A stretch of 64,000 nt of DNA from Malacoraja senta. Its lineage: Eukaryota. Where the stretch lies: positions 26,848,001-26,912,000 of the forward strand of contig CM075987.1 of assembly GCA_038087875.1 (NCBI GenBank). Reading direction: 5' to 3'. Shown one piece after another: positions 2,135-62,376 of this stretch (position 1 is the first letter of the stretch; every line of letters starts with the position of its first letter). The notes below the pieces were generated by a model, which saw nothing but the letters and a program-made list of their open reading frames with translations, did not search any database and was not told where the DNA came from. The position numbers were made by a program, and so were the translations under genes.

Positions 2135-2590
2135 TAAGTTCATAAGGTCATATGTGATAGGAACATAATTAGGCTATTCGGCCCATCGAGTCTAATCCAC
2201 GATACAATCATGGCTGATCTATCTCTCCCTCCTAACCCCATTCTCCTGCCTTCTCCCCATAACCTCTGACGCCCGTTCTAATCAAGAATGTATCTATCTC
2301 TGCCTTAAAAATATCCATTGACTTGTGGCCTCCACAGCCTTCTGTGGCAAAGAATTCCACAGGTTCACCACCCTCTGACTAAAGAAATGTCTGCTCATCT
2401 TCTTCCGAAAGGAACGTACTTTAATTCTGGCCTCTGGTCCTAGACTCTCCCACTAGTGTAAACATCCTCTCCACATCCACTCTATCCAGGCCTTTCACAA
2501 TTCGGTAACTTTCAACGAGGTCCCCGCCCCTCATCCTTCTAAACTCCAGTGAGTACAGACCCAGTGCCGTCAAACGCTCATCATATGCGA
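2135..2590 (-). mobile_element. CR1 LINE 3' fragment
   Basis: ORF 2421-2642 includes YDERLTALGLYSLEFRRMRG...YRIVKGLDRVDVERMF (CR1 ORF2 C-terminus), plus the CR1 3'UTR. Confidence 0.9.
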
Positions 2591-3242
2591 TGAACCAGAG
2601 CACCCGGAGAAAATCCACGCTGGTCATTGGGTGAACGTACAAACTCAGTAACAGGTAGCAACCATGGTCAGGATCGAACCTGGGTCTCTGGCGCTGTAAG
2701 GCAGCAACTCTACCCCTGCGCCACCGTGTCGCCCTGTTGTTAAGGAAAAAAACATTGGCTAAGACAAGAAAGGGATTGTTTCCCTTTCAATATGAAACAT
2801 TAAACATTTACATGCTTAGATGTCACATAGATGGTATTAGTATCACTCTTCATTTTAATACATGTTAATGATCTGCACTTAGTTGTAAAAAGATTGGTTC
2901 AAAGCTTGAAAAAGATTCATAAACAATAAGTGGATTAGTATAGCTTTCAGGAGGAAATTATAATTCTATAAATTGGGTGATTCATTTCAAAGTAATTATT
3001 TTCTGAATTTATTTGTGAAACTGTAGATGAAAGCAAAAATGGAAAAACATTTGCTGTAGAGGCAACATTTAGAGAGAGGGCAAAGAAGGGTACAATGAAA
3101 TATTAAGATCAGTTTGCATCGTATTCATGATGTTGCAGAATTAAAATAACCAAAAGAAACAGTTCTCCTTTGTAACCGGCAGCCTCAAAAACATTGATCG
3201 CATAATTCTAGGAATTTCCAGGAATGTTTAATGTATAATCTG

Positions 3243-3740
3243 GGGGGCACGGTGGCGCAGCGGTAGAGTTGCTGCCTTAGACCGGAGACCCGGGTTCGAT
3301 CCCGACTACAGGCGCTGTCTGTAAGGAGTTTGCACGTTCTCCCCGTGACCTGCGTGGGTTTTCTCCGAGATCTTCGGTTTCTTCCCACACTCCAAAGACG
3401 TGCAGGTATGTCGATTGATTGGCTTGGTGTAGGTGTAAATTGACCCTGGTGTGTGTAGGATAGTGTTAGTCCTCACATTGTGTTTCTGAATTTTGTTGTT
3501 GTTGTTTTTTTGGATCGAATTTCTGTCTTTAATTTGTGTATTTGGTGATGTCTTTATAAATTATTTTACTCTGATTATATGTTTCTTTGTTAAATTTTGT
3601 ACGGTGTCCTTGAGACTTTTGTATAGGCGCCCATAAATAAAATTTATTATTATTATTATTATTAGTGTGCGGGGATCGCTGGTCAGCGCAGACTCGGTGG
3701 GCCGAAGCCTCTGTCTCCGCGCTGTATCCTTAAACTAAAC
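3243..3740 (+). mobile_element. V-SINE interrupted by an L2-type 3' tail (~3471-3663)
   Basis: SINE consensus split at TAGTGTTAG; insert ends GGTGTCCTTGAG...AGGCGC...AATAAA(ATT)n. Confidence 0.8.
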
Positions 3741-4034
3741 ATCAAAGCGATGAGGCTTTAGTGCCCTCACTCTCAGCGAGATTTAAATAATTATCGTTAA
3801 GGTGAAAGGAATTACAATTTTCTAATCCACTGAGTGTGAACAGTTAAAGAGAAATGTGGGTAATAATGAAGCCAAAACAAAATGGCTCGAAACGAAACCA
3901 AATTCACAAAATAGACACAAAATACTGGGGTAACTCAGCGGGTCAGGCAACATCTCTGGAGAAAAAGGGTTCCAGCATGAAATGTCGCCTATTCCTTTTC
4001 TCCAGAGATGCTGCTTGACCCGCTGAGTTACTCA

Positions 4035-4565
4035 AGTCAAGTCAAGTGAGTTTATTGTCATGTGTCCCTGGTAGGACAATGAAATTCTTGCTTTGCTTGA
4101 GCACAACAGAACATAGTAGGCATTTACTACAAGGCATTCTATAAATATATACACAATGGTCAATATACTGATAAAGTGCAAATAACAGTATTGGCTAGTA
4201 AAGTTCAGTGTTATGTCCGAGCCAGGTTTAATAGCCTGATGGCTGTGGGGAAGTAGCTATTCCTGAACCTGGTCGTTGCAGTCTTCAGGCTCCTGTACCT
4301 TCTACCTGAAGGTAGTAGGGAGATGAGTGTGTGGCCAGGATGGTGTGGGTCCTTGATGATGCTGCCAGCCTTTTTGAGGCAGCGACTGTGGTAGATCCCC
4401 TCGATGGAAGGGAGGTCAGAGCCGATGATGGACTGGGCAGTGTTTACTACTTTTTGTAGTCTTTTCCTCTCCAGGGCACTCAAGTTGCCGAACCAAGCCA
4501 TGATGCAACCGGTCAGCATGCTCTCTACTGTGCACCTGTAGAAGTTAGAGAGAGTCCTCCTGTAT
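4035..4565 (-). mobile_element. Rex1/Babar LINE 3' fragment
   Basis: LSNFYRCTVESMLTGCIMAWFGN...DPHHPGHTLISLLPSGRRYRS...RFRNSYFPTAIRLLN; 3'UTR ends TGACAATAAA+(CTTGA)n. Confidence 0.9.
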
Positions 4566-9515: not shown

Positions 9516-10600
9516 TCTGATACTCGCTATCTCTTTATATATTTTAAAAATCTTTAGCATTTTCCTTGTTATTTAGCCTGCATGAGCTTTCTTGCTTTTT
9601 TGCCGCATCTATTGATGTATTTGGAACACCTTAGCAGTGTTTTAAGTCTCACGCTGTCTCAGAGACCTCCAGTGATTTCCACCTTCAAATAAGCCCTTTC
9701 ACACTAGATTTCTGTTTATTCATGAGTATTTATTCATAGATATTGAATTCTACCAAATGCTCTCCTGTCTCCCAAAGTCCATTCATAGTTTCTCTCAGGT
9801 CCATGCCCCAGTCCTTCCAATACAGCGTAATGTATGTAAGAGTCTGAAGAAGGATCTCGACCTGAAACGTCACCCATTCCTTCTCTCCAGAGATGCTGCC
9901 TGCCCCGCTGAGTTACTCCAGCTTTTTGTGTCTATCTAAGAGATTAGAAGGATGAGGAGGGACCTCATAAGGTCATAACTGATAGAGTAGAGTTAGGCCA
10001 TTTGGCCGATCAAATCTACTCCACCATTCAATCATGGCTGATCTATCTCTCCCTTCTAACCCCATTCTCCTGCCTTCTCCCCATAACCTCTGACACCCGT
10101 ACTAATCAAGAATCTGTCAATCTCTGCCTTAAAAATATCCACTGACTTGGCCTCCACAGCCATCTGATTCACCACCCTATCATCTCCTTCCTAAAAGAAT
10201 GTCATTTAATTTTGAGGCTATGACCTCTAGTCCTAGACTATCCCACCAGTGGAAACATCCTCATTGAAACTTACTGAATAACAAAAATCCTGGATAATAT
10301 ACAAATGCAATGAATGCAGGCAAGTTAAATACAGTAAACCCTCTTTTACGGATCTCTTTATGATGAGCGCTTGACGGCACTGGGCCTGTATTCACTGGAG
10401 TTTGGAAGGATGAGGGGGTACCACATTGAAACTTACCAAATAATGAAAAGCCTGGATAGAGTGGATGTGGAGAGGATGTTTCCACTGGTGGGAGAGACCA
10501 GGACCAGAGGCCACAGCCTTGGAATTAACGGTGTTCCATTAGGATGGAGATGAGGAGGATTTTCTTTCATCAAAGGATGGTGAATCTGTGAAATTCACTG

Positions 10601-12361
10601 TAGGCTGTGGGCCGGGCATCAAAAATGTGTCTGGAATTTACCTTTCCTGACCCATGTCTCGGAACTACATGCAATTTTGCTCAGATTTAGATAAAATATA
10701 ATTGAGAAGGAAGTCATAACTCGTCAGTGCCAAAAGTTGCACATTAACTAATTAAACTAATTAGAAAATGAGATCCTATCTGGGACTCATGACAATAAAC
10801 TCTCTTGACCAATTTGGTCTTGACTTGAGATCGAAAAAGTACGCGCCAACTATTGTCCAATGCCCATATTACACCATGGGGAGCCTAATTCCGTGCTGCG
10901 GTCTATTTAAACCAAGTTCAAGTTCCAGTGAGTTTATTGTCGTGTGTCCCAGATAGGACAATGAAATTCTTGCTTTAATTCAGCACAACAGAATATTGTA
11001 GGCATAAATAAATACAGAATTTCTTATTATTATTAGCCCTATTTATTATATTATATTATATTTATTATATTAACCCTAACCCATATATTATTATACCATA
11101 TATATATATATATGACTTGTGAATATGACTGTAATCATATATAATTATGTATAATTATGTTATATAAAAATAATATAATGAATATAATTGTGAGTGTGTT
11201 TTTTAAATGAGACTGCCGCAGAGATCCGATCCTGAACCAGCCTAATTAATGGGTGAGGGCAGTTCCTGTGGGTTCCCCCGTTTACTGAACCCCACTGACT
11301 GCCAGTGTGCAGAGTGGGGGTCACGGCCATAGTGGGACTGGGGCAGTGCCAGGCTGGGGGAAGGCTAAGGCATCTTCCACTGACAGGAAAACGCCTAACC
11401 CTATACTAACCCTAACTCGCCCCCCCTTCCAGAGCTGCCCGCGGCTGGTGCTGGAGCCACTTTGGGACCGGCTGCGGGCTCCGTATGTGTGGCACCGCAG
11501 CGCGTCCGCCTCGGCCAGCATGCCCTTCTGGATCATGATGGTGATGATGGTGGGGAGCAGCACTGCCCTGCACGCCGCCCGGGCCGCCTTCAGCACCCCC
11601 ATAGCGCCGGCTACGTCAGTCCGCCCGCTCGCTCGCTGCAACACCGGCCTACTGACTGCCCGACCGACCCCTCGCAGCACCCACCGGCCGTCCGACCACT
11701 CTCACCACCCACCGGCTGCCCGACGGCCCGACTGCCCGACTGACCACTCTCACCACCCACCGGCCGTCCGACCACTCGCAGCACCCACCGGTGGCCCGAC
11801 GGCCCGACAGCTTGACCGATCCTCTACAGCATACATCGGCCTACCGACAAGCTCGACCGACAGACTGACCGATTGACCGACTGACCGATTGAATAACCAA
11901 ATGACTGACCCTAACCCTCATCCTAACCCTAGCTCTACATTTGTTAATTATCATTTTTATTTAACAGTTCACATCATAACTTCATAAAGATAAATCAATT
12001 GAAAAACAAAATTATCAGCAAGGTGAGCATTACCTTTATTCCTTGGAAACCTCGCTATTGTTTTGATGTAATGAGGAGGCAGCCATGATCCCAGGGTCCT
12101 CGCTACCTAGCGACCATAAAACAAAGCGTGGGATTGGTCAATTTGCGTCCGACCTCAATGTCAAACGTGCATTGATTGTACAATTACTACTCGGAAAATT
12201 TTAGGTTTTTCTCATATTTAAAAAAAATGTGCAGGTATTGTTCTTGATGAGTTTCAGGTATGATTTATACATAATATTTTAACACAGTATGTTAAAAATT
12301 CAGGTAGTTCCGTGAGTTGGGTCACGAACTTGAACGAAAAAGCTCCTCGGCCCACAGACTA
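10601..12361. mobile_element. Non-autonomous TIR DNA transposon, TAG...CTA termini, 4-bp TSD (Academ-like)
   Basis: Termini TAGGCTGTGGGCCG / CGGCCCACAGACTA; subterminal inverted match TGACCCATGTCTCGGAACTACATGCAATTTT vs the reverse complement of 12294-12324; flanks ACTG/ATTG; host CR1 rejoins cleanly. Confidence 0.75.
11430..11602 (-). pseudogene. Probable captured host first-exon fragment inside the transposon
   Basis: ATG in context GCGCTATGG at 11602; MGVLKAARAACRAVLLPTIITIMIQKGMLAEADALRCH...; 37 of the first 38 codons end in G/C. Confidence 0.5.
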
Positions 12362-13134
12362 ATTGCTACAGAAGGCTGTGGAGGCCAAGTCAATGGATAT
12401 TTTTTAAGGCATAGATAAACAGATTCTTGATTAGTACGGGTATCAGGGGTTATGGGGAGAAGGCAGGAGAATGGGGTTAGGAGGGAGAGATAGATCATCC
12501 AAGATTGAATGGCGGAGTGGACTTGATGGGCCGAATGGCCTAATTCTGCTCCTATAGACTTATGAAGATGTCTACCAGGAAACATTGACTACCAACTTTT
12601 ACATGACTATCACAAAGTCCGCAGTACTACCGCATAAAATCTACTCCAAATCAGATCAAAAAAGGGCACGTCGCAAAAACAGAAGATGCTTGTGGAAAAT
12701 ATTTGCTTGTCCTTTTTATCTTATTGATGATCCGATACAGTGGAGTTTTCAGAATCCGTGTGTAACTCAATAAATATTGTGTTATTGGAGTGGATGACAT
12801 GAGAAGTCCCACGGATCAATCCTCTTTGCACCTAACTGCAACAGTGGGCTTTATGTTATTGCTCAGGCGTGTGACTAAGGACTCAAGTGTTAATATTGCA
12901 ATATTAGCTTCAATGTTCACAGCTCCCTTTCAACTGGTGGGCCCCTTGTGTTTAATTAAGAAATAAAGGGCACATTTTGTATATTCCCCTTCAAAATTCT
13001 CTGGACTCTTTCCCTCAAGGTCTCGTGTTGCAATGACCGACAGACAGTTCCTTGAACAACAATCCATTTTTCTGGAAAATGAATCGTTTTGTACTGAGCA
13101 AAAGCACAATAGCCTGACCTAATCTACCATTCAT

Positions 13135-19190: not shown

Positions 19191-19297
19191 AAAATTGTAG
19201 AAGGGGACACTTATAAACGATGTGTCTGAAGAAGGGTCCAGATATGAAACGTCACCTACCCATGTTCTACAGAGGTGTTGCCTGACCCGCTGAGTAA

Positions 19298-19809
19298 AGG
19301 CCCTGTCCCACGGGCAGGCGGGTCCAGGCGGTAAGCGCGGCGTAGCAGGAAGTGGGGACCGCGGGGTCGGTCCCACGCAGATCGCCGGAGCCGTATGTAG
19401 TTGGTCCCGACACCGCGCGGGGCTCAGAAAAACTGACACTGTCCAAAAATCCTGTGCGGCAACGGCCTGCCGCCCCGCTGCCGCCGCGAGCACCGCCTGG
19501 ACGCCGCAAGCACCGCCTGGACGCCGCAAGCACCGCCTGGACGCCGCAAGCACCGCCTGGACGGCGCAAGCACCGCCTGGACGCCGCAAGCACCGCCTGG
19601 ACGCCGCAAGCACCGCCTGGACGGCGCGCACCATCTCGACGGAGTACGCTAGCGCGTTGCGTTGCGCGATGACGTCATCACCCGACGCCGCGCTCGCCGC
19701 ATGCATTCGCATGCTCGTGGGACAGGCCGTACGGTGGCACCCGCGCGGCAGCCACTTCCTGCTACGCCGCGCTTACCGCCTGGAACCGCCTGCCCGTGGG
19801 AGAGGGCCT
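19298..19809. mobile_element. PIF/Harbinger MITE, GC-rich family B, with internal 20-bp tandem array
   Basis: ~58-bp TIRs (AGGCCCTGTCCCACGGGCAGGCGG...); flanks TAA/TTA; (CACCGCCTGGACGCCGCAAG) x ~7 at 19491-19627. Confidence 0.85.
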
Positions 19810-19839
19810 TTACTCCAGCACTTTGTATCATTTTTTGGG

Positions 19840-20195
19840 CATACGTGCAGGGAGAATGTACAAACTCCGTACAGACAGCACCCGTAGTCAGGATTGAACC
19901 CAGGACTCTGGCACTATAAGGCAGCAACTCTACCGCTGCGCCATCGTGCCGCCCTTTGAATCACTAACACTATCCTACACACACTAGAGCCTATATCCAT
20001 TTTACCAAAGCCAATTAAACTACAAACCCGCACGTCTTTGGAGTGTGGGAGGAAACCGGAGCACCCGGAGAAAACCCACGCAGGTCGCGGGAAGAACGTA
20101 CAAACTCCGTACAGACAGCACCTGTGATCAGGATCGGACCTGGGTCTCTGGCGCTGTGAGGCAGCAACTCTACCGCTGCGCCACCGTGCCGCCCG
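19840..20195 (-). mobile_element. Two partial V-SINE copies
   Basis: Reverse-complement SINE heads ending at ~19955 and ~20195. Confidence 0.8.
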
Positions 20196-22871: not shown

Positions 22872-24890
22872 ATACATTGGATCTTTTTCTGGATACAGAA
22901 TAAATTGGAATAAAAGTGAAATTACGTCAATAAAACCGAAAGACTCAACACATCTTTTAAAATTCCCTTAAAATAGCTACAGAAAAATTTAAATACTTGG
23001 GAATCAAAATCACTAGAACATATCAAGGCATGTTTAAAGCAAATTTTGATCCTTTACTTAATAAATTAAATACACTAATTAAATTTTGGAAAACGTTCCC
23101 GATGTCTTTAATAGGCCAAATAAATGCAATAAAAATGATCTTCTTACCACAAATTTTATACCTATTTCAATCGATTCCTATATAACTACCAAAGAAGTTT
23201 TTTTTTAAACTGGATTCAGACATTACTAATTTTATATGGGACTATAAATCACATAGAATACAAAGAACACACTTGAACAAAGCTAAAGTATTAGGGGGCT
23301 TAGCACTCCCTAACTTCATGTATTATTATTGGTCAGTAAACATTAAAAATATGATTCAACTGATGGACAACTCTGCCCAGCAAGTGGATTGGATTGTAAT
23401 GGAGAGAGAAGACTGCTCCTCTGGAAACATTGGAGCGATCCTCCTCTCACCAATGAAACTGAATAACATATATTATAACAAAAACCCAATTATACATAGT
23501 ACAATCAGAACTTGGAAACAAATAAAACAAAATTTAAAATTAAGAAATTTATCGCTTTTATCACCTATAATAAATAACCCTTCATTTAATCCCTCTATTA
23601 CAGACAAATCTTTCATACAATGGGATAGACTAGGAATTTAAACGTTCGGTGACTTGTACGAAACTGGAAAATTACTATCATTCCAACAATTACAAATAAA
23701 ATATAAACTCGGAAATAATCAATATTTTAAATATTTTCAAATATGTGACTATTTGAAAAAATATACAAAAGACCATTATAATATCCCAGCAGATGTATTG
23801 GATGAAGCAATGCAGATAAAAGCTGAATCAGCAAACTTAATATCATATTTGTATAATATTATCTTAAATGTAGAAATACCATCTACGGAAGGTATTAGAA
23901 GAGACTGGGAACAAGAATTGGCTATTAAAATCTCAAAGGAAAGGTGGAATGAACATTTATTAAACGTGCATAAATGTTCGATTAATGTAAGACACAACTT
24001 AATACAATTTAAAATTTTACATAGATTATATTATTCCAAAACTAAAATCAATAACATTTTCCCAAATGTATCATCAATTTGTGATAAATGTCAATCTCAA
24101 GAAGCTACTATAGCGCACTCATTTGTTTTCTGTACAAAAATTCAAACATTTTGGATTGAAATTTTTGAAATCTTTACAAAATAATTTAAAATAAAACTGA
24201 TACCCAAAGCAGAATGGATTATCTTCGGAACAACGGAAGATAGTCCAGAACTAAATGTGTTCCAAAAGAAATTAATAGACTATGGGTTAATAACTGGAAA
24301 AAAGTTAATCCTAAAATTCTGGAAAAACGCTCCAATACCAACTATAAACATGTGGATTTCAAATATGTTCGAAACACTACACCTAGAAGAGATAAGACTC
24401 CTCCTGGCAGGTAAACCAGATCACTTCCACCTGACGTGGTCTGCATTTATAGAATTATTACAAGTATAGGGTGCAAAAGTACTAAAAAAAAACTGAGGTT
24501 AGGTAAGGTGGATGAAAGCTGGAGAGTTGGTATATCCCATTTGCGTGATGCTTACAACAACTATTTGTTTTTCTCTTTTTCCTCTTTCTCTTTTTTCTTC
24601 TTTTTTAGGGTCTATTTCTTAATCCTTTCTTTTTGTTTTTAATTTCTTTCTTATAGGGTCTTTGTTTTTTTTGTTTTTTTTGTTGTCACGTTTTTTACAC
24701 TTTCACTTTTTTTATTCACTTTCTTCTTTCTCTCAATCTCATCCTTTCCCTTTATTAGTGTAAAAAATAAACGGAGTACATTAATTGTAATAAGATATAC
24801 GTGACGAGTACTAATGTAATTGGTTGTAATCTAATGTACTAATAAATACAAATTAAAAAAAATTAAAAAAATTAAAAATAAAATAAAAAA
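22872..24890 (+). mobile_element. L1-clade LINE, 5'-truncated ORF2 pseudogene + 3'UTR + poly(A)
   Basis: SFSGYRINWNKSE, KYLGIKI, GGLALPNFMYYYW, QFKILHRLYYS, CDKC..ATIAHSFVFC (CCHC), split by stops and frameshifts; U-rich UTR; A-rich tail 24850-24890. Confidence 0.9.
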
Positions 24891-35575: not shown

Positions 35576-36647
35576 ATGTTATACCATGCACCCATTGTTG
35601 TAACAGAGAATTGGATCTACTGTCAACAAAGGTAGACTTGTGGATGGTCATCCTTTCTCAGTCTGAGGGAAGGGTCTCGACCTGAAACGTCACCCATTCC
35701 TTCTCTCCAGAGATGCTGCCTGTCCCGCTGAGTTACTCCAGCATTTTGTGTCTACTCCTGGTGTAAACCAGCACCTGCGGTTCCTTCCTGCACTAAACCT
35801 CTTCCATTGCAGGCGGGCCGATCTGACAGAGCCGAGGTGAGTGTGGACACTCCGGTCCGGTGCAGTAACAGGGCCCTGGCGCTCCTCGGCTGCCAAGTTT
35901 TCAGGTAGTGCAGAGGGAGGGTAATTAATCACGACAAGGCAGGCTGTCCAGTATCGCTCCGCTTGCTGTTGGATCTTGTGTTAATCCAGCTGAGGCTGCC
36001 ACTTGAAGTACCATCGGTGGGCACGGCTGTAAGATGAGGCAACACGCTGCCAGAGGCTGCGACTGCTCCGGGAACATTCAACACTTCAACCACGGGGATT
36101 TACACTTTGGTATCCTCATGTCAATCGGGCTGTTCGCCTGAAGTGTCCGGTTTTTTTACGAGTGCGCATAAAATAAACATAAAAGATAACAAGTTTTCTC
36201 ACACAATGCAGTAAAAGAATGTTGCCGGAGTTGCCAGCAATGAATGTCATTTATATAACTTTCCACTTCATTGAATGATGAACTAAAGATACTGATTGGC
36301 AAAAGTAGACACAGAATGGTGCAGTAACGCAGCGGGTCGGCCAACGTCACCCATCCCTTCTCTCCAGAGATGCTGCCTGTCCCGCTGAGTTACTCCAGCA
36401 TTTTGTATCTACCTTCGATTTAAACTGGCATCTGCAGTTCTTTCCTACACATACTGATTGGCGACCCCGTCTGAAGGCCATTTTAGTTTGCATCATGAAC
36501 TTGCAGTTGGATCAAGTTCTTTAAAATTAACGCCCCCTAACACTGATCCCGACCTGATGGAGGGAAGTTATTTAGTATTTGTTTAGAGATACAGCGCGGA
36601 AACAGGCCCTTTGGCCCAGCCAGTCCGCGCCGACCAGCGATCCCCGC

Positions 36648-37143
36648 TCGGGTTGCCAACTTTCTCACTCCCAAATAAGGGACACAAGGTCAAAATACGG
36701 GACAAATTCCCGACGGCAATTCGTTGACCGACTGGGCCGTGGCTGGGTGAATGATGAGTTGGCCCCAGGTGCTGGACTGCACACAAACCCAGCCGGCGGG
36801 CGGGCCAGCTGAGGAGTTTTGGCCCGGGCCGCGCGACATCGTGCGCAAAGTCCGGCGCACCGTCCAACTCATGAACCGATGATCGTCCATTAGAAGGGGT
36901 GGGTGGTGGTGTCGGCGGTAAGCGAAGGTCTGGACAGCTGGCCGGGCTGCCGACCGACGGGGCCACGGGCGAGGCGCTGCTGCTGCTGCTGCTGCACTCC
37001 ACGGGCTGCACTATGTCGGGACAGGTGACAGGCTCCGACCCGACAGTCCCCTAGACCCGAGTAGTAGCAGTCAAGTACGGGATAAACCAAGTTAGCCCAA
37101 TATATGGGATGTCCCAGCTAATACGGGACAGTTGGCAACCCTA
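36648..37143. mobile_element. hAT-type (Blackjack-like) MITE with GC-rich interior, inside a V-SINE
   Basis: Termini T(C)GGGTTGCCAAC / GTTGGCAACCCTA; subterminal AAATACGGGACA repeats. Confidence 0.75.
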
Positions 37144-39836: not shown

Positions 39837-41549
39837 TTACAAGTACCCCATGACAGCCTTCACAGCCTTCTGTGGCAATGGATTCCATAGATTCACCACT
39901 ATAACTCAAGCAGTTCATCCTCATCTCCTTTACAAAAGTATGTCCTTTTAGTCTGAGGCTGTGGCCATGTATCAAGGTTACATATTGCAAGGACAAAGTG
40001 GATATGCTCTATGGAGAGCTCCCAAACACGGGATCGAACTTGGTCTGGTCAAGATTCCAGCATCCAGCAGAGATTTTACAAGTTTACTAGTTCACAAGTT
40101 ATAGGAGTAGAATTAGGCCATTCGGCCCATCGAGTCTATTCCGCCATTCAATCATGGCCGATCTCTGCCTCCCAATCCCATTTTCCTGCCTTCTCCCCAT
40201 AACCCTTGACACCCGTTCTAATCAAGAATTTGTCTATCTCTGCCTGAAAAATATTCACTGACTTGGCCTCCACAGCCCTCTGTGGCAATGAGTTTCACAG
40301 ATTGACTAAAGAAGTTCCTCCTCACCTCCTTTCTAAAAGAGCGCCCTTTAATTCTGAGGCTGTGACCTCTGGTCCTAGACTCTCCCACCAGTGGAAACAT
40401 CTATCTATGCTTTTCATTATTCTGTAAGTTTCAATGTCCCCCCCTGCCCCCCCCCTACAACCTTCTGAACACTGTAGCTCACGATTCCAGCATCTGCAAT
40501 TCCTTGTGTCTCTATTGTTCAGGCCATATTATTTCAGTCAGGCATTCAATGCCAATAGAAAGGTTGCTATTTATTTGGAGTGAAGCGTTGAAGGCAAAAT
40601 ATAGCTTTATCAAATTTCATTTTCATCCTGAGGTGTTTCATTAAACTACAGAAGCTGCTTTTTGCCACGGGAGGGTTGAGTGATGGGGGCAAACAGCCAG
40701 CAATAATCTTGGAATATGTCTTCCTCAAGAACTTTAAAAGAAAAGTCAGTTGTAAAATTTGGACTCAAACCTGCTCAGTCACATATTCAATTCAAGTGAG
40801 TTTATTGTCATGTGTTCCCTGATAGGACAATGAAATTCTAGCTTTTCTTCAGCACAACAGAATATTGCTACCGTTATAGAGTCACACAGACCTTTCGGCC
40901 CACCTTTAGTTTTTGGTTCAGGAGATACAGGGCGGAAACAGGCCCTTCGGCCCACCGCGTACGCGTCGTCCAGAGATCCCCGGCACGGTGGCGCAGCGGT
41001 AGAGTTGCTGCCTTACCGAAGACCCGGATCGATCCCGACTACGGGTGATTTCTGTGCGGAGTTTGTACGTTCTCCCCGTGACCCGCGTGGGTTTTCTCCG
41101 AGATCTTCGGTTTCCTCCCACACACTCCAAAAAACGTGCAGGTTAATTGGCTTGGTATAAATGTACAAATTGTCTCTTGTGTTTGTAGTGTAGTGTTAGT
41201 TTCTTTTATTTTTTTAGTTTAGGTTACTTTAATTTGGAGATACATCGCGGAAACAGGCCCTTCGGCCCACCGAGCCCGCACCGACCAGCGATCCCCGCAC
41301 ATTAACTCTAAACAAAACTAAACTCTTTCCAAAGAGAGACACAAAAAGCTGGTTGTATCTCAGCGGGACAGGTAGCATCTCTGCAGAGAAGAAATGGGTG
41401 ACGTTTCGGGACCGAGACCCTGTCCCTCTGAGTTAATCCAGCTTTTTGTGTGTATCAAGTTCCGCACTACACGCTACGAATCCCAGTTGTGGAGACACTG
41501 GTACCGTTGTCTCATTGTAGGACATTGATCAATCTTTTATTCTGGATTT

Positions 41550-43697: not shown

Positions 43698-43939
43698 TAA
43701 GGCTTTACACTTAATTGAGACACAGACTGATGCCCAGAAATATTGAAGGAAGGACCAGTCAATTGAAAGAACCGAGAACAAAACTGTTATGTGGTCAGTC
43801 TACTATAATGTGAACAACGTTATACAGTGTATCGTGTAGAAAGGATCTTCTGCATGAGGAATATCATAGTCTTACAGTGTGGAAACAATAGAGTGGGAAA
43901 ATAGAGTCATCAGTCGCAGTCATAGAGTCATCAAGTCAT

Positions 43940-44410
43940 GGAGACACAGAGACACAGGGACACAGGGACACAGGGACACAGGGACACAGGGACACAGAGT
44001 CACAGAGTCACAGGGACACAGGGACACAGGGACACAGGGACACAGGGACACAGGGACACAGGGACACAGGGACACAGGGACACAGGGACACAGGGACACA
44101 GGGACACAGGGACACAGAGACACAGGGACACAGGGACACAGGGACACAGGGACACAGGGACACAGGGACACAGGGACACAGGGACACAGGGACACAGGGA
44201 CACAGGGACACAGGGACACAGAGACACAGAGACACAGGGACACAGGGACACAGGGACACAGGGACACAGGGACACAGGGACACAGAGACACAGGGACACA
44301 GAGACACAGAGACACAGGGACACAGAGTCACAGGGACACAGGGACACAGGGACACAGGGACACAGGGACACAGGGACACAGGGACACAGGGACACAGGGA
44401 CACAGGGACA
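43940..44410. repeat. (GGGACACA)n 8-bp tandem expansion
   Basis: ~58 units, grading from (ATAGAGTC)n, the CR1-type tail motif. Confidence 0.95.
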
Positions 44411-44717
44411 TAGAATCAATAGTCAAAAGTTCCAGCTTGGAAAATTAGCCATAGAGCGATACAGCATGGAAACTGACCCTTTGGCCAAACTTGCCCACAC
44501 CACCCAACACCTCCCATCTACAGGCAGGTGGAAGTAGATTGGGCATGTTGGTCGGCATGGGCAAGTTTCCACACTGTATGATTCTATGACTCTATCACCC
44601 GACTTATAAAAACAGAAACACAGTGGGATATATTCAAAATAAATTTGCCAATGTTTCATATCTCTCGTAGAAGTTGAGGTTGTTTAAGAGGCAAAGTTAG
44701 TCAATATAGTGAGATAT

Positions 44718-48684: not shown

Positions 48685-49584
48685 ATACTGTATATGTGTG
48701 GATATATATATGTGTGCATGTATATGTGTGTGTGTGTATATATATGGTCTGTGTATGTATATATACACACACACACTTCACATTTTTTCTCATTTATTAC
48801 CCTGTTTACAGAGCACCATGTTTCCCTATTGTGTCGTGCTGCTGCAAGTAAACATGTCAGTGTTCTGTCTGGGACACATGACAATGAAACACTCTTGCCT
48901 CTTGGCGAGGTGACATGTCTGGATGACATCTTATCAGTCGCTGCCCCTATGGTGCTTCCGTATGTCCCGTCTAATTAACCCAATCAAACAGCTGTAGCGT
49001 ACAGCACAAAGGTGTGTTGTCTCTCTTGCACGTCTCAGTGTGTATGGCAAGGATCTATTATCCTTGGCACAGCTGCTTCCTGTAGAATACAAAGCAGGTG
49101 CCCGGGAGACAGCACGCCAGCATTTCAGTTCTAATCCTCTCCGCTGTTTTCTCCTCCCATCTCCTGAGGCCACTAACCTGTCTCTGGACCCCACCCAGGT
49201 GGCCCTCAATCAGCTGCAGCCTTAGATTCAGTCTCAAGAAGGGTCCCGACCCGAAACGCCACCCATTCCTTCTCTGCAGAGATGCTGCCTGACCCGCTGA
49301 GTTGGTCCAGCATTGTGTGTCCAGCATCTGCAGCTTTAGACCCGATTGTTTGACCAGGCTATCTGTTGAAGAACATCCATCACAACCCAAGCCCCATCCA
49401 ACACCCGTTCACTTCCATATTATATGCGGTAGAGATGGTCAGATATCGATCAGCTGTGATGAACATCGTCCAATTTTCCCTACGGTTGTAGACAACCTCA
49501 GGCCAAGCCCGTTTGGGATTGGTGACGGTCTCCTGAGCCCAGACTAGGAACAGACATTCATGAGCGACAGGATCCCACCTTCAC

Positions 49585-56345: not shown

Positions 56346-57600
56346 TTCGTGAGCTGCCATCTGGTACTACATTAAGTTTCCCTGGCAGATAGATAGCTCC
56401 AATCCAAATCTCTCTATCCCTACTCCAGGTCCAATTGTATTTGCCAACCTGTCACATGATAACGATTTGAGTCCACCCATGTGATTCATATCAGCAACTG
56501 CTGCAGTGTTGTCTATTTTGCACTGCACATGCAAACTAGTTTAGTTAGTGCCATAAGCCTCGAGTCCATAAAATACTCTTGGTTAATTCCCCATGTATGC
56601 AGAAGCAATGTTCATCTGTCTCCACAGCTCGATCTTGTATCAGTAGCACCCTACCCAAGTGCTCTGACATCTATCTGCAAATCATGGAAGCTTGGTCCAA
56701 TAACACTTTGGAACTACTAGTGGACACATGCTGAATCCACCATTGTACATCAGCAACAGCCTCTATTGATAGAAGCATAGGTCTATTATAATGACCCCAA
56801 TGTATCCTCAATGCTTGTTCCTTTGACCTTTGTAATTGTAGATAATAAAGTGGCCATATTGAACTGCTGGAAATGCTGCCAGCCATTACCACAGCAGTCT
56901 TGTCACCTGGCTAATTGAAGGCTGTGTGTTAGCAATTAACTTGATATAGCTCTTAATTAGCTGTACCCTTTTTTGCCTGGGCAAGGTCACAATGATGTTG
57001 ATTAAGTCCATTGTGAACCCAACTAGTCAATTTGTGTCACAGGTATAAATTTAGATTCCTCAGAATAGCTTATAAAGCCCAATTAAAATTGGTTTTTACC
57101 AACTGCCACTGATGCTTCAGCTGTTTCCTTTGATTGTCCTACAATCAAGATATTATCTAGCTAAGCCATGAGCACATGACCTTGACTTCTCTTCATGCCT
57201 AGAATAGGTTTTAACAACTTTGTAATCCCTCTAGGAGCTGAAGACAAACCATTAGGCAGTGGATTGTATTGGCATAATTCCCCATCCAGCTGAATTTTAA
57301 ATCTTCTATCCTGCAAATGAACAGACACTGAATCCGCATCTTTAAGATCTCCTTCACAAACGTTTCCATCTTAAAATGTCTATACCGTACAAAAGGGTTA
57401 AGCCTATTCAGGTCTGTATAATTCTGCATCCCCCCATCCTTTTTTGGTCTGGGAAAGATATTGGACACAAACTGATGGCTTTGGTAAACTGCCTTAGCAA
57501 TTACACCTTTATTACATAAGCTTGCAAGTTCCAGCTGAACTTCCAATTGTTCAGTGATACTGAAGTCAAACTCCTTTTTTGGAACATGTTGCATGGGTAA
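56346..57600 (-). pseudogene. DIRS reverse transcriptase / RNase H (degraded)
   Basis: FVSNIFPRPKKDGG...DLNRLNPFVRYRHFKMET; active site reads A*LDN at ~57152-57166; IDVRALG*G (TDASxxGWG-like); YLPGKLNVVPD. Confidence 0.9.
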
Positions 57601-57719
57601 ATCAGAATTTGCATTTAAGCCCTTGAATAACCTTCAGTATAAACATATCTGAGGTAAACATTTAATTGTATCACATTAGATCTGTCTACATGAGAACCAG
57701 ACCCTCTTACCTCCTTACC

Positions 57720-61514: not shown

Positions 61515-62376
61515 CAGAAGAATAGCCTTTTATTGTCATTCAGGCCGAAGTCTGAACGAAATTGAAGCAGTCGTACATAAAACAACAATAAACACACATT
61601 AACATCCACCACAGTGAGTCCACCCAACATCTCCTCACTGTGATGGAGGCAAAAGTCTTAGGTCTGCAGTCTCTTCCCTCCTCTTCTCCCTCTGCGCTGA
61701 GGCGATACCCCCCGGGCGATGTTTCCCGCGGCTCAAACACCGCAGCCCGGGGTGGTCGAAGCTGCCGCCCACCAGTCCTGCAAACGCAGCCGCTGGCCCA
61801 CGGCCGAACCCCGGACTCAGGCCACCACCGCCAGAACACCATCCCAGCCACCCTCACGTGAGTACCATCTTCAGCCTCGGGCCGGGCCGCCCCGACATGG
61901 GCGCCGCTTCTTCCCCCGGCCGGGCCACCCCGACCTGGGCGCCAAACCTCCCTCGGGCTGCGAGCGCCGCACCTCCCCGAGCTCGGCCGCTCCAACGGGA
62001 GCCTCGTTCCACCCTTGGGCTGGCCGCCCTCACGAGAGCGCCACAACCTCTCACGGGAGCAGTGTTCCAGCCCTGAGCCGGACCACCCTCACGGGAGCGA
62101 GCTCAGGGCGAGTCTTGACAGGCTCTGCCTCCAGAGCCTCGAGGTCATCAACTCCATTTAGGCCTCAACGCAGACGGAGGCAGAGAAGGGGAATACGACA
62201 AAAAAGTCGCATTCCCCCGCAGGGAGAGACTGCAAACCCCGTTACAAACCCCCACCCCCCCAAAACACAAACTAAAAACCAAAAACTAGACTAACCAAAA
62301 CAAAATAAACAACACAAAAAACACAAACAAACAGGACTGCTGATGAGCCGCTGCAGCCAGGGCCGCGCCGTCAGTC
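61515..62376 (-). mobile_element. ~860-bp GC-rich non-autonomous retroposon with Rex1-type 3' tail
   Basis: Minus-strand 3' end ...TTTCGTTCAGACTTCGGCCTGAATGACAATAAAAGGCTATTC; shares its 3' part with 14801-15023; no RT ORF. Confidence 0.7.

Follow-up and report, generated by a model that had tools for sequence, protein, structure and literature searches.

A skate element of 1,761 bp very probably represents a family of cut-and-paste transposons that carry the 5′ end of a host gene, CHST14. It lies in a 64-kb window (64,000 nucleotides of Malacoraja senta contig CM075987.1), to which all coordinates refer.

A non-autonomous TIR element interrupts a host LINE

The element occupies positions 10601 to 12361, starts with TAG and finishes with CTA, an extent and termini that agree with the preliminary description of this DNA. 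It is non-autonomous and has terminal inverted repeats (TIRs) and a 4-bp target-site duplication (TSD). Its ends, its target site and the repeats nested in it are as follows.

10601..12361, no strand: TIR DNA transposon, non-autonomous, Academ-like, TAG...CTA, placed by its ends, its TSD and gapped contigs
10601..10750, plus strand: left imperfect TIR, about 150 bp
12221..12361, minus strand: right imperfect TIR, matching the left end and tracked to 12357 by one X1 contig
10597..10600, plus strand: left TSD copy, ACTG
12362..12365, plus strand: right TSD copy, ATTG
10360..10600, plus strand: host LINE, 5′ side, end of ORF2, sharing 60-68% identity with ORFs 32653 and 46190 of the window
12362..12570, plus strand: host LINE, 3′ side, collinear with the left flank elsewhere in the family
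10769..10825, no strand: nested 57-bp insertion with a 7-bp duplication, TGAGATC; fragment of a very high-copy repeat
10913..11005, minus strand: second nested high-copy repeat, with a depth of 2.4-3.6 million in runs X1, X3 and X5

Between the two ends 14 of the 16 terminal bases are identical, and the inverted likeness extends over about 150 bp, with 93 matches in 152 alignment columns and a score of 111 (maximum among 2,894 random pieces of the window: 57). The TIRs are therefore imperfect, as had been noted, but twice the length of about 75 bp first given to them. The TSD was read at this locus only and its two copies differ by one mismatch; it is backed by four uninterrupted host-LINE copies within the window, in which the four bases occur once. 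Contigs of four runs (among 23 listed) were also compared with the element at 80% likeness, and in all four some contigs skip 1,765 bases (1,761+4), the empty form of the site. The TSD thus stands as originally read, as does the clean split of a LINE, since other copies continue across the site. The insertion lies in the 3′ end of the LINE, which we take to be of CR1 type from its motif, the label it had been given, and Pfam returned no match for ORFs 32653 and 46190.

The 57-bp insertion is missing from the other contigs, which join 10768 directly to 10826 in all four runs compared. The second nested repeat, presumably a LINE 3′ tail, has more copies in the window at 4033-4123, 40786-40867 and 48827-48888. 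About 2.2 kb away, a second host-LINE 3′ end lies inverted with respect to the first (9985-10166 versus 12369-12551), forming a 151-bp inverted repeat of 90% complementarity. Inside the element, a 130-bp segment at 11236-11365 reaches a depth of 235,000-344,000 in X1, above that of the arms, and about that of the arms in X3 and X5; it has no codon periodicity and may be sequence common to other families or a second captured piece.

The two longest stop-to-stop frames, of 195 and 126 aa, both overlie the captured block described below, and none of the five element frames compared with Pfam gave a significant match, in line with the earlier view that a transposase is absent. Academ transposases have no Pfam model (PMC5751038), so decayed remnants may persist. 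An Rfam search of the element gave five matches, all far below gathering scores, and four other segments tested had no codon periodicity (p 0.17-0.93).

The carrier is probably an Academ element of the AcademX type

TAG termini characterise Academ, and the element combines TAG...CTA ends with a 4-bp TSD. A TTAA site or TGT, CAC or GRG ends mark piggyBac, Kolobok, Sola3, Ginger, EnSpm and Sola2, which are disfavoured because both the site and the ends differ here. AcademX elements make 3-4-bp TSDs (PMC10045372), and we consider it reasonably likely that the carrier belongs to this type. A different superfamily with 4-bp duplications, such as Sola1 or an unclassified group, is a possibility that we hold more tentatively: neither a transposase nor an autonomous partner was seen for the element, and TAG ends are not given for Academ in the literature consulted for superfamily assignment, while the TSD length of AcademX and the mismatch of site and ends with the groups named above count against it. 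A search of metagenome contigs with the TIR pattern gave no match, and no autonomous partner with the same ends was found there. The Repbase rule for such an assignment allows no more than one mismatch to a classified family over terminal positions 1-11 (PMC4455052).

The GC-rich frame derives from the 5′ coding region of skate CHST14

Within the element, the preliminary description had singled out a GC-rich minus-strand frame with a good Kozak ATG at 11602, in which 37 of the first 38 codons end in G or C. Both features held on recomputation. The ATG has G at -3 and +4, and the codon bias (37/38, and 55/60 over a longer stretch) is the strongest found when the 64 kb were scanned in six frames with windows of 38 codons; one of 200,000 shuffles matched it. 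Since the mirrored plus-strand frame likewise scores 37/38, the bias does not fix the strand of the captured frame; the protein match does.

When the 60-aa minus-strand peptide was compared with 458 candidates, the sole match was skate CHST14 (D4ST1, dermatan 4-O-sulfotransferase), with E=3.8e-11 and 49 of 60 residues identical. Over these 60 residues identity is 49 with Leucoraja, 49 with Amblyraja and 46 with Rhinoraja (XP_055491781.1, XP_032885055.1 and XP_078254507.1), 35-41 with five other batoids, and 32-37 with sharks and chimaera. In a tree of 23 rows the element grouped with the skates with support of 97/97, its own row being flagged for odd composition. Judged by sequence, the frame is the N-terminus of skate CHST14, so that the parent gene that had been sought is found, and the earlier idea that the 5′ end of a gene for a secreted or membrane protein had been captured holds for a membrane protein. 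The block and its edges are laid out as follows.

11416..11602, minus strand: captured CHST14 5′ coding fragment, covering roughly the 75 N-terminal codons of a protein of 350-354 aa and missing 11 codons in frame at 11540/11539
11603..11908, minus strand: upstream part of the subfamily block, with the ATG context, a GC-rich leader, and 76-bp and 8-bp tandem repeats (11654-11892)
11394..11415, minus strand: TTAGGG-like tract right after the coding breakpoint, the junction being bridged by contigs in all four runs
11909..11932, minus strand: second TTAGGG-like tract, oriented like the first and bounding the block on its opposite side, read from the sequence

The tblastn match of CHST14 runs from 11602 to 11420, and a C run that is one base shorter in most contigs would carry the coding fragment on to 11416. 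Relative to its skate orthologs the fragment lacks 11 codons (33 nt) of the membrane anchor in frame, is truncated before the catalytic domain and has private substitutions. The lost segment is conserved as far as lungfish and bichir, and the transfer therefore ran from gene to element. The reverse, a CHST14 N-terminus derived from the element, is ruled out by this conservation across chondrichthyans and beyond.

The hydrophobic stretch once described as signal-peptide-like reads instead as what the 11-codon deletion has left of the conserved N-terminal signal anchor of CHST14, not a cleavable signal peptide; the anchor presumably confers a type II Golgi topology. The ADALRCH motif after it is a decayed form of VDALSGH in CHST14. 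The catalytic domain, Sulfotransfer_2 (PF03567), covers parent residues 118-343 and is absent from the fragment.

Nor did the proposal of a captured first exon survive. The match stops at WKGG, inside the open reading frame, and passes directly into the TTAGGG-like tract; between 11602 and 11100 the sense strand has no donor motif of the GT[AG]AG type; and the human CHST14 gene consists of one exon (PMC9421425). For these reasons the captured piece is the 5′ part of the coding region and not a spliced first exon.

Residue 2 of the element peptide is Gly, as in Rhinoraja and most chondrichthyans, where both Rajidae have Val. The short Ser tract is also that of Rhinoraja, and Leu4 and RGQ are those of Rajidae. 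This mixture faintly suggests a capture early in the skate lineage, residue 2 being variable in Pristis too.

Other searches for the source gave little. The sense peptide had no match in the PDB and the antisense peptide had one, at E=0.42, while phmmer against 50%-identity representatives returned three weak, repetitive and unrelated matches and missed the donor. Four distant loci with 31-39% identity to CHST14 in metagenome contigs were set aside. The plus-strand frame (P0003, with the acceptor-like site described below) was compared with PDB and Pfam and rejected as the source, as only the minus frame has a homolog. In one Logan protein, P0009, the 11-codon deletion of the element is joined to an intact catalytic domain of the Leucoraja CHST14 type; this is probably an assembly chimera, a converted allele being the alternative.

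The block lies between two telomere-like tracts

The course that we propose begins with a fragment of skate CHST14 passing from the gene into the element. The block, at about 11416-11908, is bounded by two TTAGGG-like tracts of the same orientation, with an imperfect 11-bp direct repeat around it (11405-11415 and 11904-11914). The copy is a 5′ fragment followed at once by the tract, with neither a poly(A) nor a 3′-anchored part, and in this it departs from a processed retrocopy. A template switch would be the simplest route. We lean towards copying at the DNA level, during repair or replication, within the TTAGGG-like tract of an older element: from a break or stalled fork in the repeat tract, synthesis would have moved to the GC-rich 5′ region of CHST14 and then returned to the element. 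The outcome would be a fragment that stops in mid-ORF, has no poly(A) and is flanked by telomere-like sequence at either end.

The main rival alters this capture step only. It holds that, in an ancestral skate, an element inserted immediately 5′ of CHST14 and picked up the adjoining promoter together with the 5′ coding region, in which case the native gene would keep an element arm. A second Logan protein, P0012, is what such a donor site would yield, being a CHST14 without the deletion, ahead of which sequence matching 11941-11603 runs in one frame and crosses the TTAGGG tract into sequence of arm depth. P0012 may show the true region upstream of CHST14, in which case an arm of the element sits at the donor site, or it may be chimeric; it is a single contig, and P0009 looks like a chimera of the same kind. 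We therefore rate adjacent capture as unlikely, though worth keeping in view. A few bases just before the ATG do look gene-derived, with outside support from a shark prediction, P0040, that also reads GAGAM into Met, like the bases ahead of the element ATG. The remainder of 11603-11908 may be either CHST14 leader and promoter or filler.

An RNA route, with a fragment of the CHST14 transcript reverse-transcribed into the element by LINE machinery, seems to us distinctly improbable. LINEs are abundant in the window, two retro-like pieces are nested in this very copy, the 11-bp direct repeat surrounds the block, and an intronless gene offers no intron test. The fragment, however, consists of the 5′ end only and has no poly(A), whereas LINE products are typically 5′-truncated (PMC12001565), and whatever inserts into a TTAGGG tract would be expected to end up between direct repeats.

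One capture appears to have been followed by amplification

The founder appears to have lost the 33 nt of membrane anchor before it spread. Evidence for the spread comes from 31-mers and from contig depth. Between 29 and 32% of the element's 31-mers were present in 15 DNA or unlabelled runs from eight organisms, and half was reached in none. All 30 bins of the element were covered in each of the four runs compared. Over the CHST14 bins the mean summed depth was 74,815 in X1, 53,124 in X3 and 28,599 in X5, the median depth of the eight contigs listed per run being 30, 41 and 29, respectively. The block thus stands at about 2,500 (X1), 1,300 (X3) and 1,000 (X5) times the median listed-contig depth, although summed depth is no copy number, has no single-copy control here and can be inflated by overlapping short contigs. 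A firm floor is given by the mean depth per contig at 11441, which is 42x in X1, 12x in X3 and 9x in X5.

From these depths we infer a copy number roughly in the hundreds to low thousands. With the host LINE as calibrator the estimate was about 2,200-4,300 or 8,500-29,000 copies depending on the bin, and is too unstable to be read beyond an order of magnitude; its inputs were the LINE density of the 64-kb window and a 2.2-Gb genome, the size given for a skate in bioRxiv 10.1101/2025.06.08.657570. The previous supposition that the element had spread is borne out in the sense that it is multi-copy in several organisms by 31-mers and depth.

Contig details were available for 32 of about 99,000 pieces, picked by length, a choice that favours insertion-free contigs. 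Among these 32 the coding junction is bridged by seven (organisms A, C and E), and the 11 listed contigs that bridge the deletion site (organisms C and E) all lack the 33 nt. Since these nucleotides are missing in every such contig, the deletion is older than the spread. Together with the shared junction and the depth, this points to a single capture and a large amplification after it. Depth over the arms is 1.4-3.7 times that over the block, a ratio that fits a loaded subfamily within a larger family with the same arms. Six majority differences from this copy were found in the coding part (among 40 of 274 rows); four of them alter a residue, each to one that occurs in a skate ortholog, and this copy has therefore decayed privately.

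It is very improbable that the high depth reflects a tandem array or segmental duplications holding the block, this copy then being a rare, single-copy, gap-filled Pack-TIR. Most animal Pack-TIRs are indeed single-copy gap-filling products (PMC8277862), only one TSD was read, and none of the 32 contigs listed spans the whole element. But the contigs are diverse, most of them aligning at 90-95% identity; the block is tied to the inner arm on both sides in X5 (records 26 and 30); the junction is common to three organisms; and in one X1 contig the right TIR runs to 12357 and is followed by 421 bases of unlike sequence, the only listed terminus with another flank. Dispersal by transposition thus remains our preferred reading: a transposase acting in trans would have produced the hundreds or thousands of copies, a rough number, and this copy would have entered the LINE with a 4-bp duplication.

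The captured fragment is probably a passenger

The likeliest function of the CHST14 fragment is none. We regard it as probably a passenger because it has no catalytic domain and a shortened anchor, its decay looks neutral and its CpG content is unremarkable. Peak 19-residue hydropathy falls from 1.98 in the parent to 1.64 in the fragment. CpG protection of the block was considered and rejected, as its observed/expected ratio is 0.94 and five of 13 GC-rich window tiles, the block among them, exceed 0.9. A near-length search with the 93-aa ORF found no separate protein record of the fragment among 28 candidates, and among the runs listed with element 31-mers there was no RNA run, X16 being flagged as probably DNA. 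The copies would thus decay neutrally, and any effect would be regulatory.

Recruitment of dispersed copies as promoters, start codons or antisense exons of host transcripts appears doubtful to us. The ATG context and the GC-rich leader are retained, and on the plus strand the TTAGGG-like tract and C run at 11410-11432 together resemble a splice acceptor (branch point, pyrimidine tract and CAG) that is followed by an open antisense frame, and copies inside introns could thereby undergo antisense exonisation; bat Helitrons with captured promoters also feed into transcripts (PMC4224331). Against this, the differences of this copy look neutral, its CpG ratio is ordinary, and the protein search was empty. 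Just as doubtful is a bolder account, in which an Academ family acquired the promoter of CHST14 with its leader and start codon at a site still visible upstream of the gene and reached more than 1,000 copies early in the skate radiation, some of them driving or splicing transcripts. If true, this would be the TIR-transposon counterpart of promoter shuffling by bat Helitrons, and the donor site, the founder deletion and the species tree would allow it to be dated.

Other features of the window

The second-highest GC3 bias in the window (34/38) lies at 36938-37050, which could be another captured or repeat-borne fragment; it falls in one of three other GC- and CpG-rich blocks with open frames (19200-19890, 36580-37050 and 61540-62300). 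A 140-aa minus-strand frame at 57211-57633 has no Pfam match at E 0.01 and resembles a DIRS/Ngaro-type reverse transcriptase. At 23186-24184 on the plus strand an AT-rich ORF2 remnant, presumably L1/Tx1-like, gave a weak zf-RVT match below the cut-off. A long tandem array with a short unit, open in several frames, extends over 43870-44450.

Relation to known systems

Like the animal Pack-TIRs of Tan et al. 2021 (PMC8277862), the element has TIRs at both ends, an internal host fragment and a TSD, here with empty-site support at one locus, and an identifiable host parent, CHST14, at the protein level. That survey reports 370 Pack-TIRs in 100 animal genomes, four of them multicopy; most are hAT or Tc/Mariner, there is no Academ column, and the elephant shark, the only cartilaginous fish, has none. 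Multicopy cases tend toward GC-rich captures, and Pack-hAT-N8_XT carries the 5′ UTR of CAPSL. The model proposed there, fork stalling and template switching followed by transposition, resembles the capture that we propose. The scale is where they differ, since the frog example has three copies and the fly Ssk-FB4 four, whereas hundreds to thousands are estimated here, in several species.

Closest in scale is HelibatN3 of bats, which carries the NUBPL promoter, 5′ UTR and first exon in about a thousand copies (PMC4224331, PMC12001565). It too is the 5′ end of a host gene amplified in a vertebrate lineage, with a 5′ capture bias, but it is a rolling-circle Helitron, whereas the element described here has TIRs and a 4-bp TSD. 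With the AcademX lineage the element has a TSD of 3-4 bp in common (PMC10045372). It also has the TAG termini of Academ, but carries neither a transposase nor a nuclease gene. The Pack-MULE and Pack-TYPE elements of plants (PMC8903248) are likewise non-autonomous TIR elements that spread gene fragments, although here the host is a vertebrate, one donor is recognised, and the TSD is 4 bp and not the 9-10 bp of the MULE-like FB4. In the literature searched, which leaves Repbase Reports and most subscription journals outside and so allows for an entry in a repeat library, we found no report of gene capture by Academ and no paper joining CHST14 with skate.

Significance

Gene capture by TIR elements is already known; the departure here lies in how large the amplification seems to be, in the host, a cartilaginous fish, and in the Academ-like nature of the carrier. 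At the 5′ end of skate CHST14, copies of the family will in practice disturb the mapping of reads, primers, the masking of repeats and assembly, and P0009 looks like an example. The family may be present, unrecognised, in repeat libraries, and such cases are perhaps hidden more generally, the captured piece being absorbed into consensus sequences. With one founder, a diagnostic deletion and a single named donor, it becomes possible to test in public skate assemblies how the capture took place and what became of the copies. According to the survey discussed above (PMC8277862), nearly all animal Pack-TIRs arose as by-products of gap filling and are single-copy. If the family has amplified to hundreds or thousands of copies across skates, it would represent plant-style Pack transposition at scale in vertebrates and would add Academ-like elements to the known carriers.
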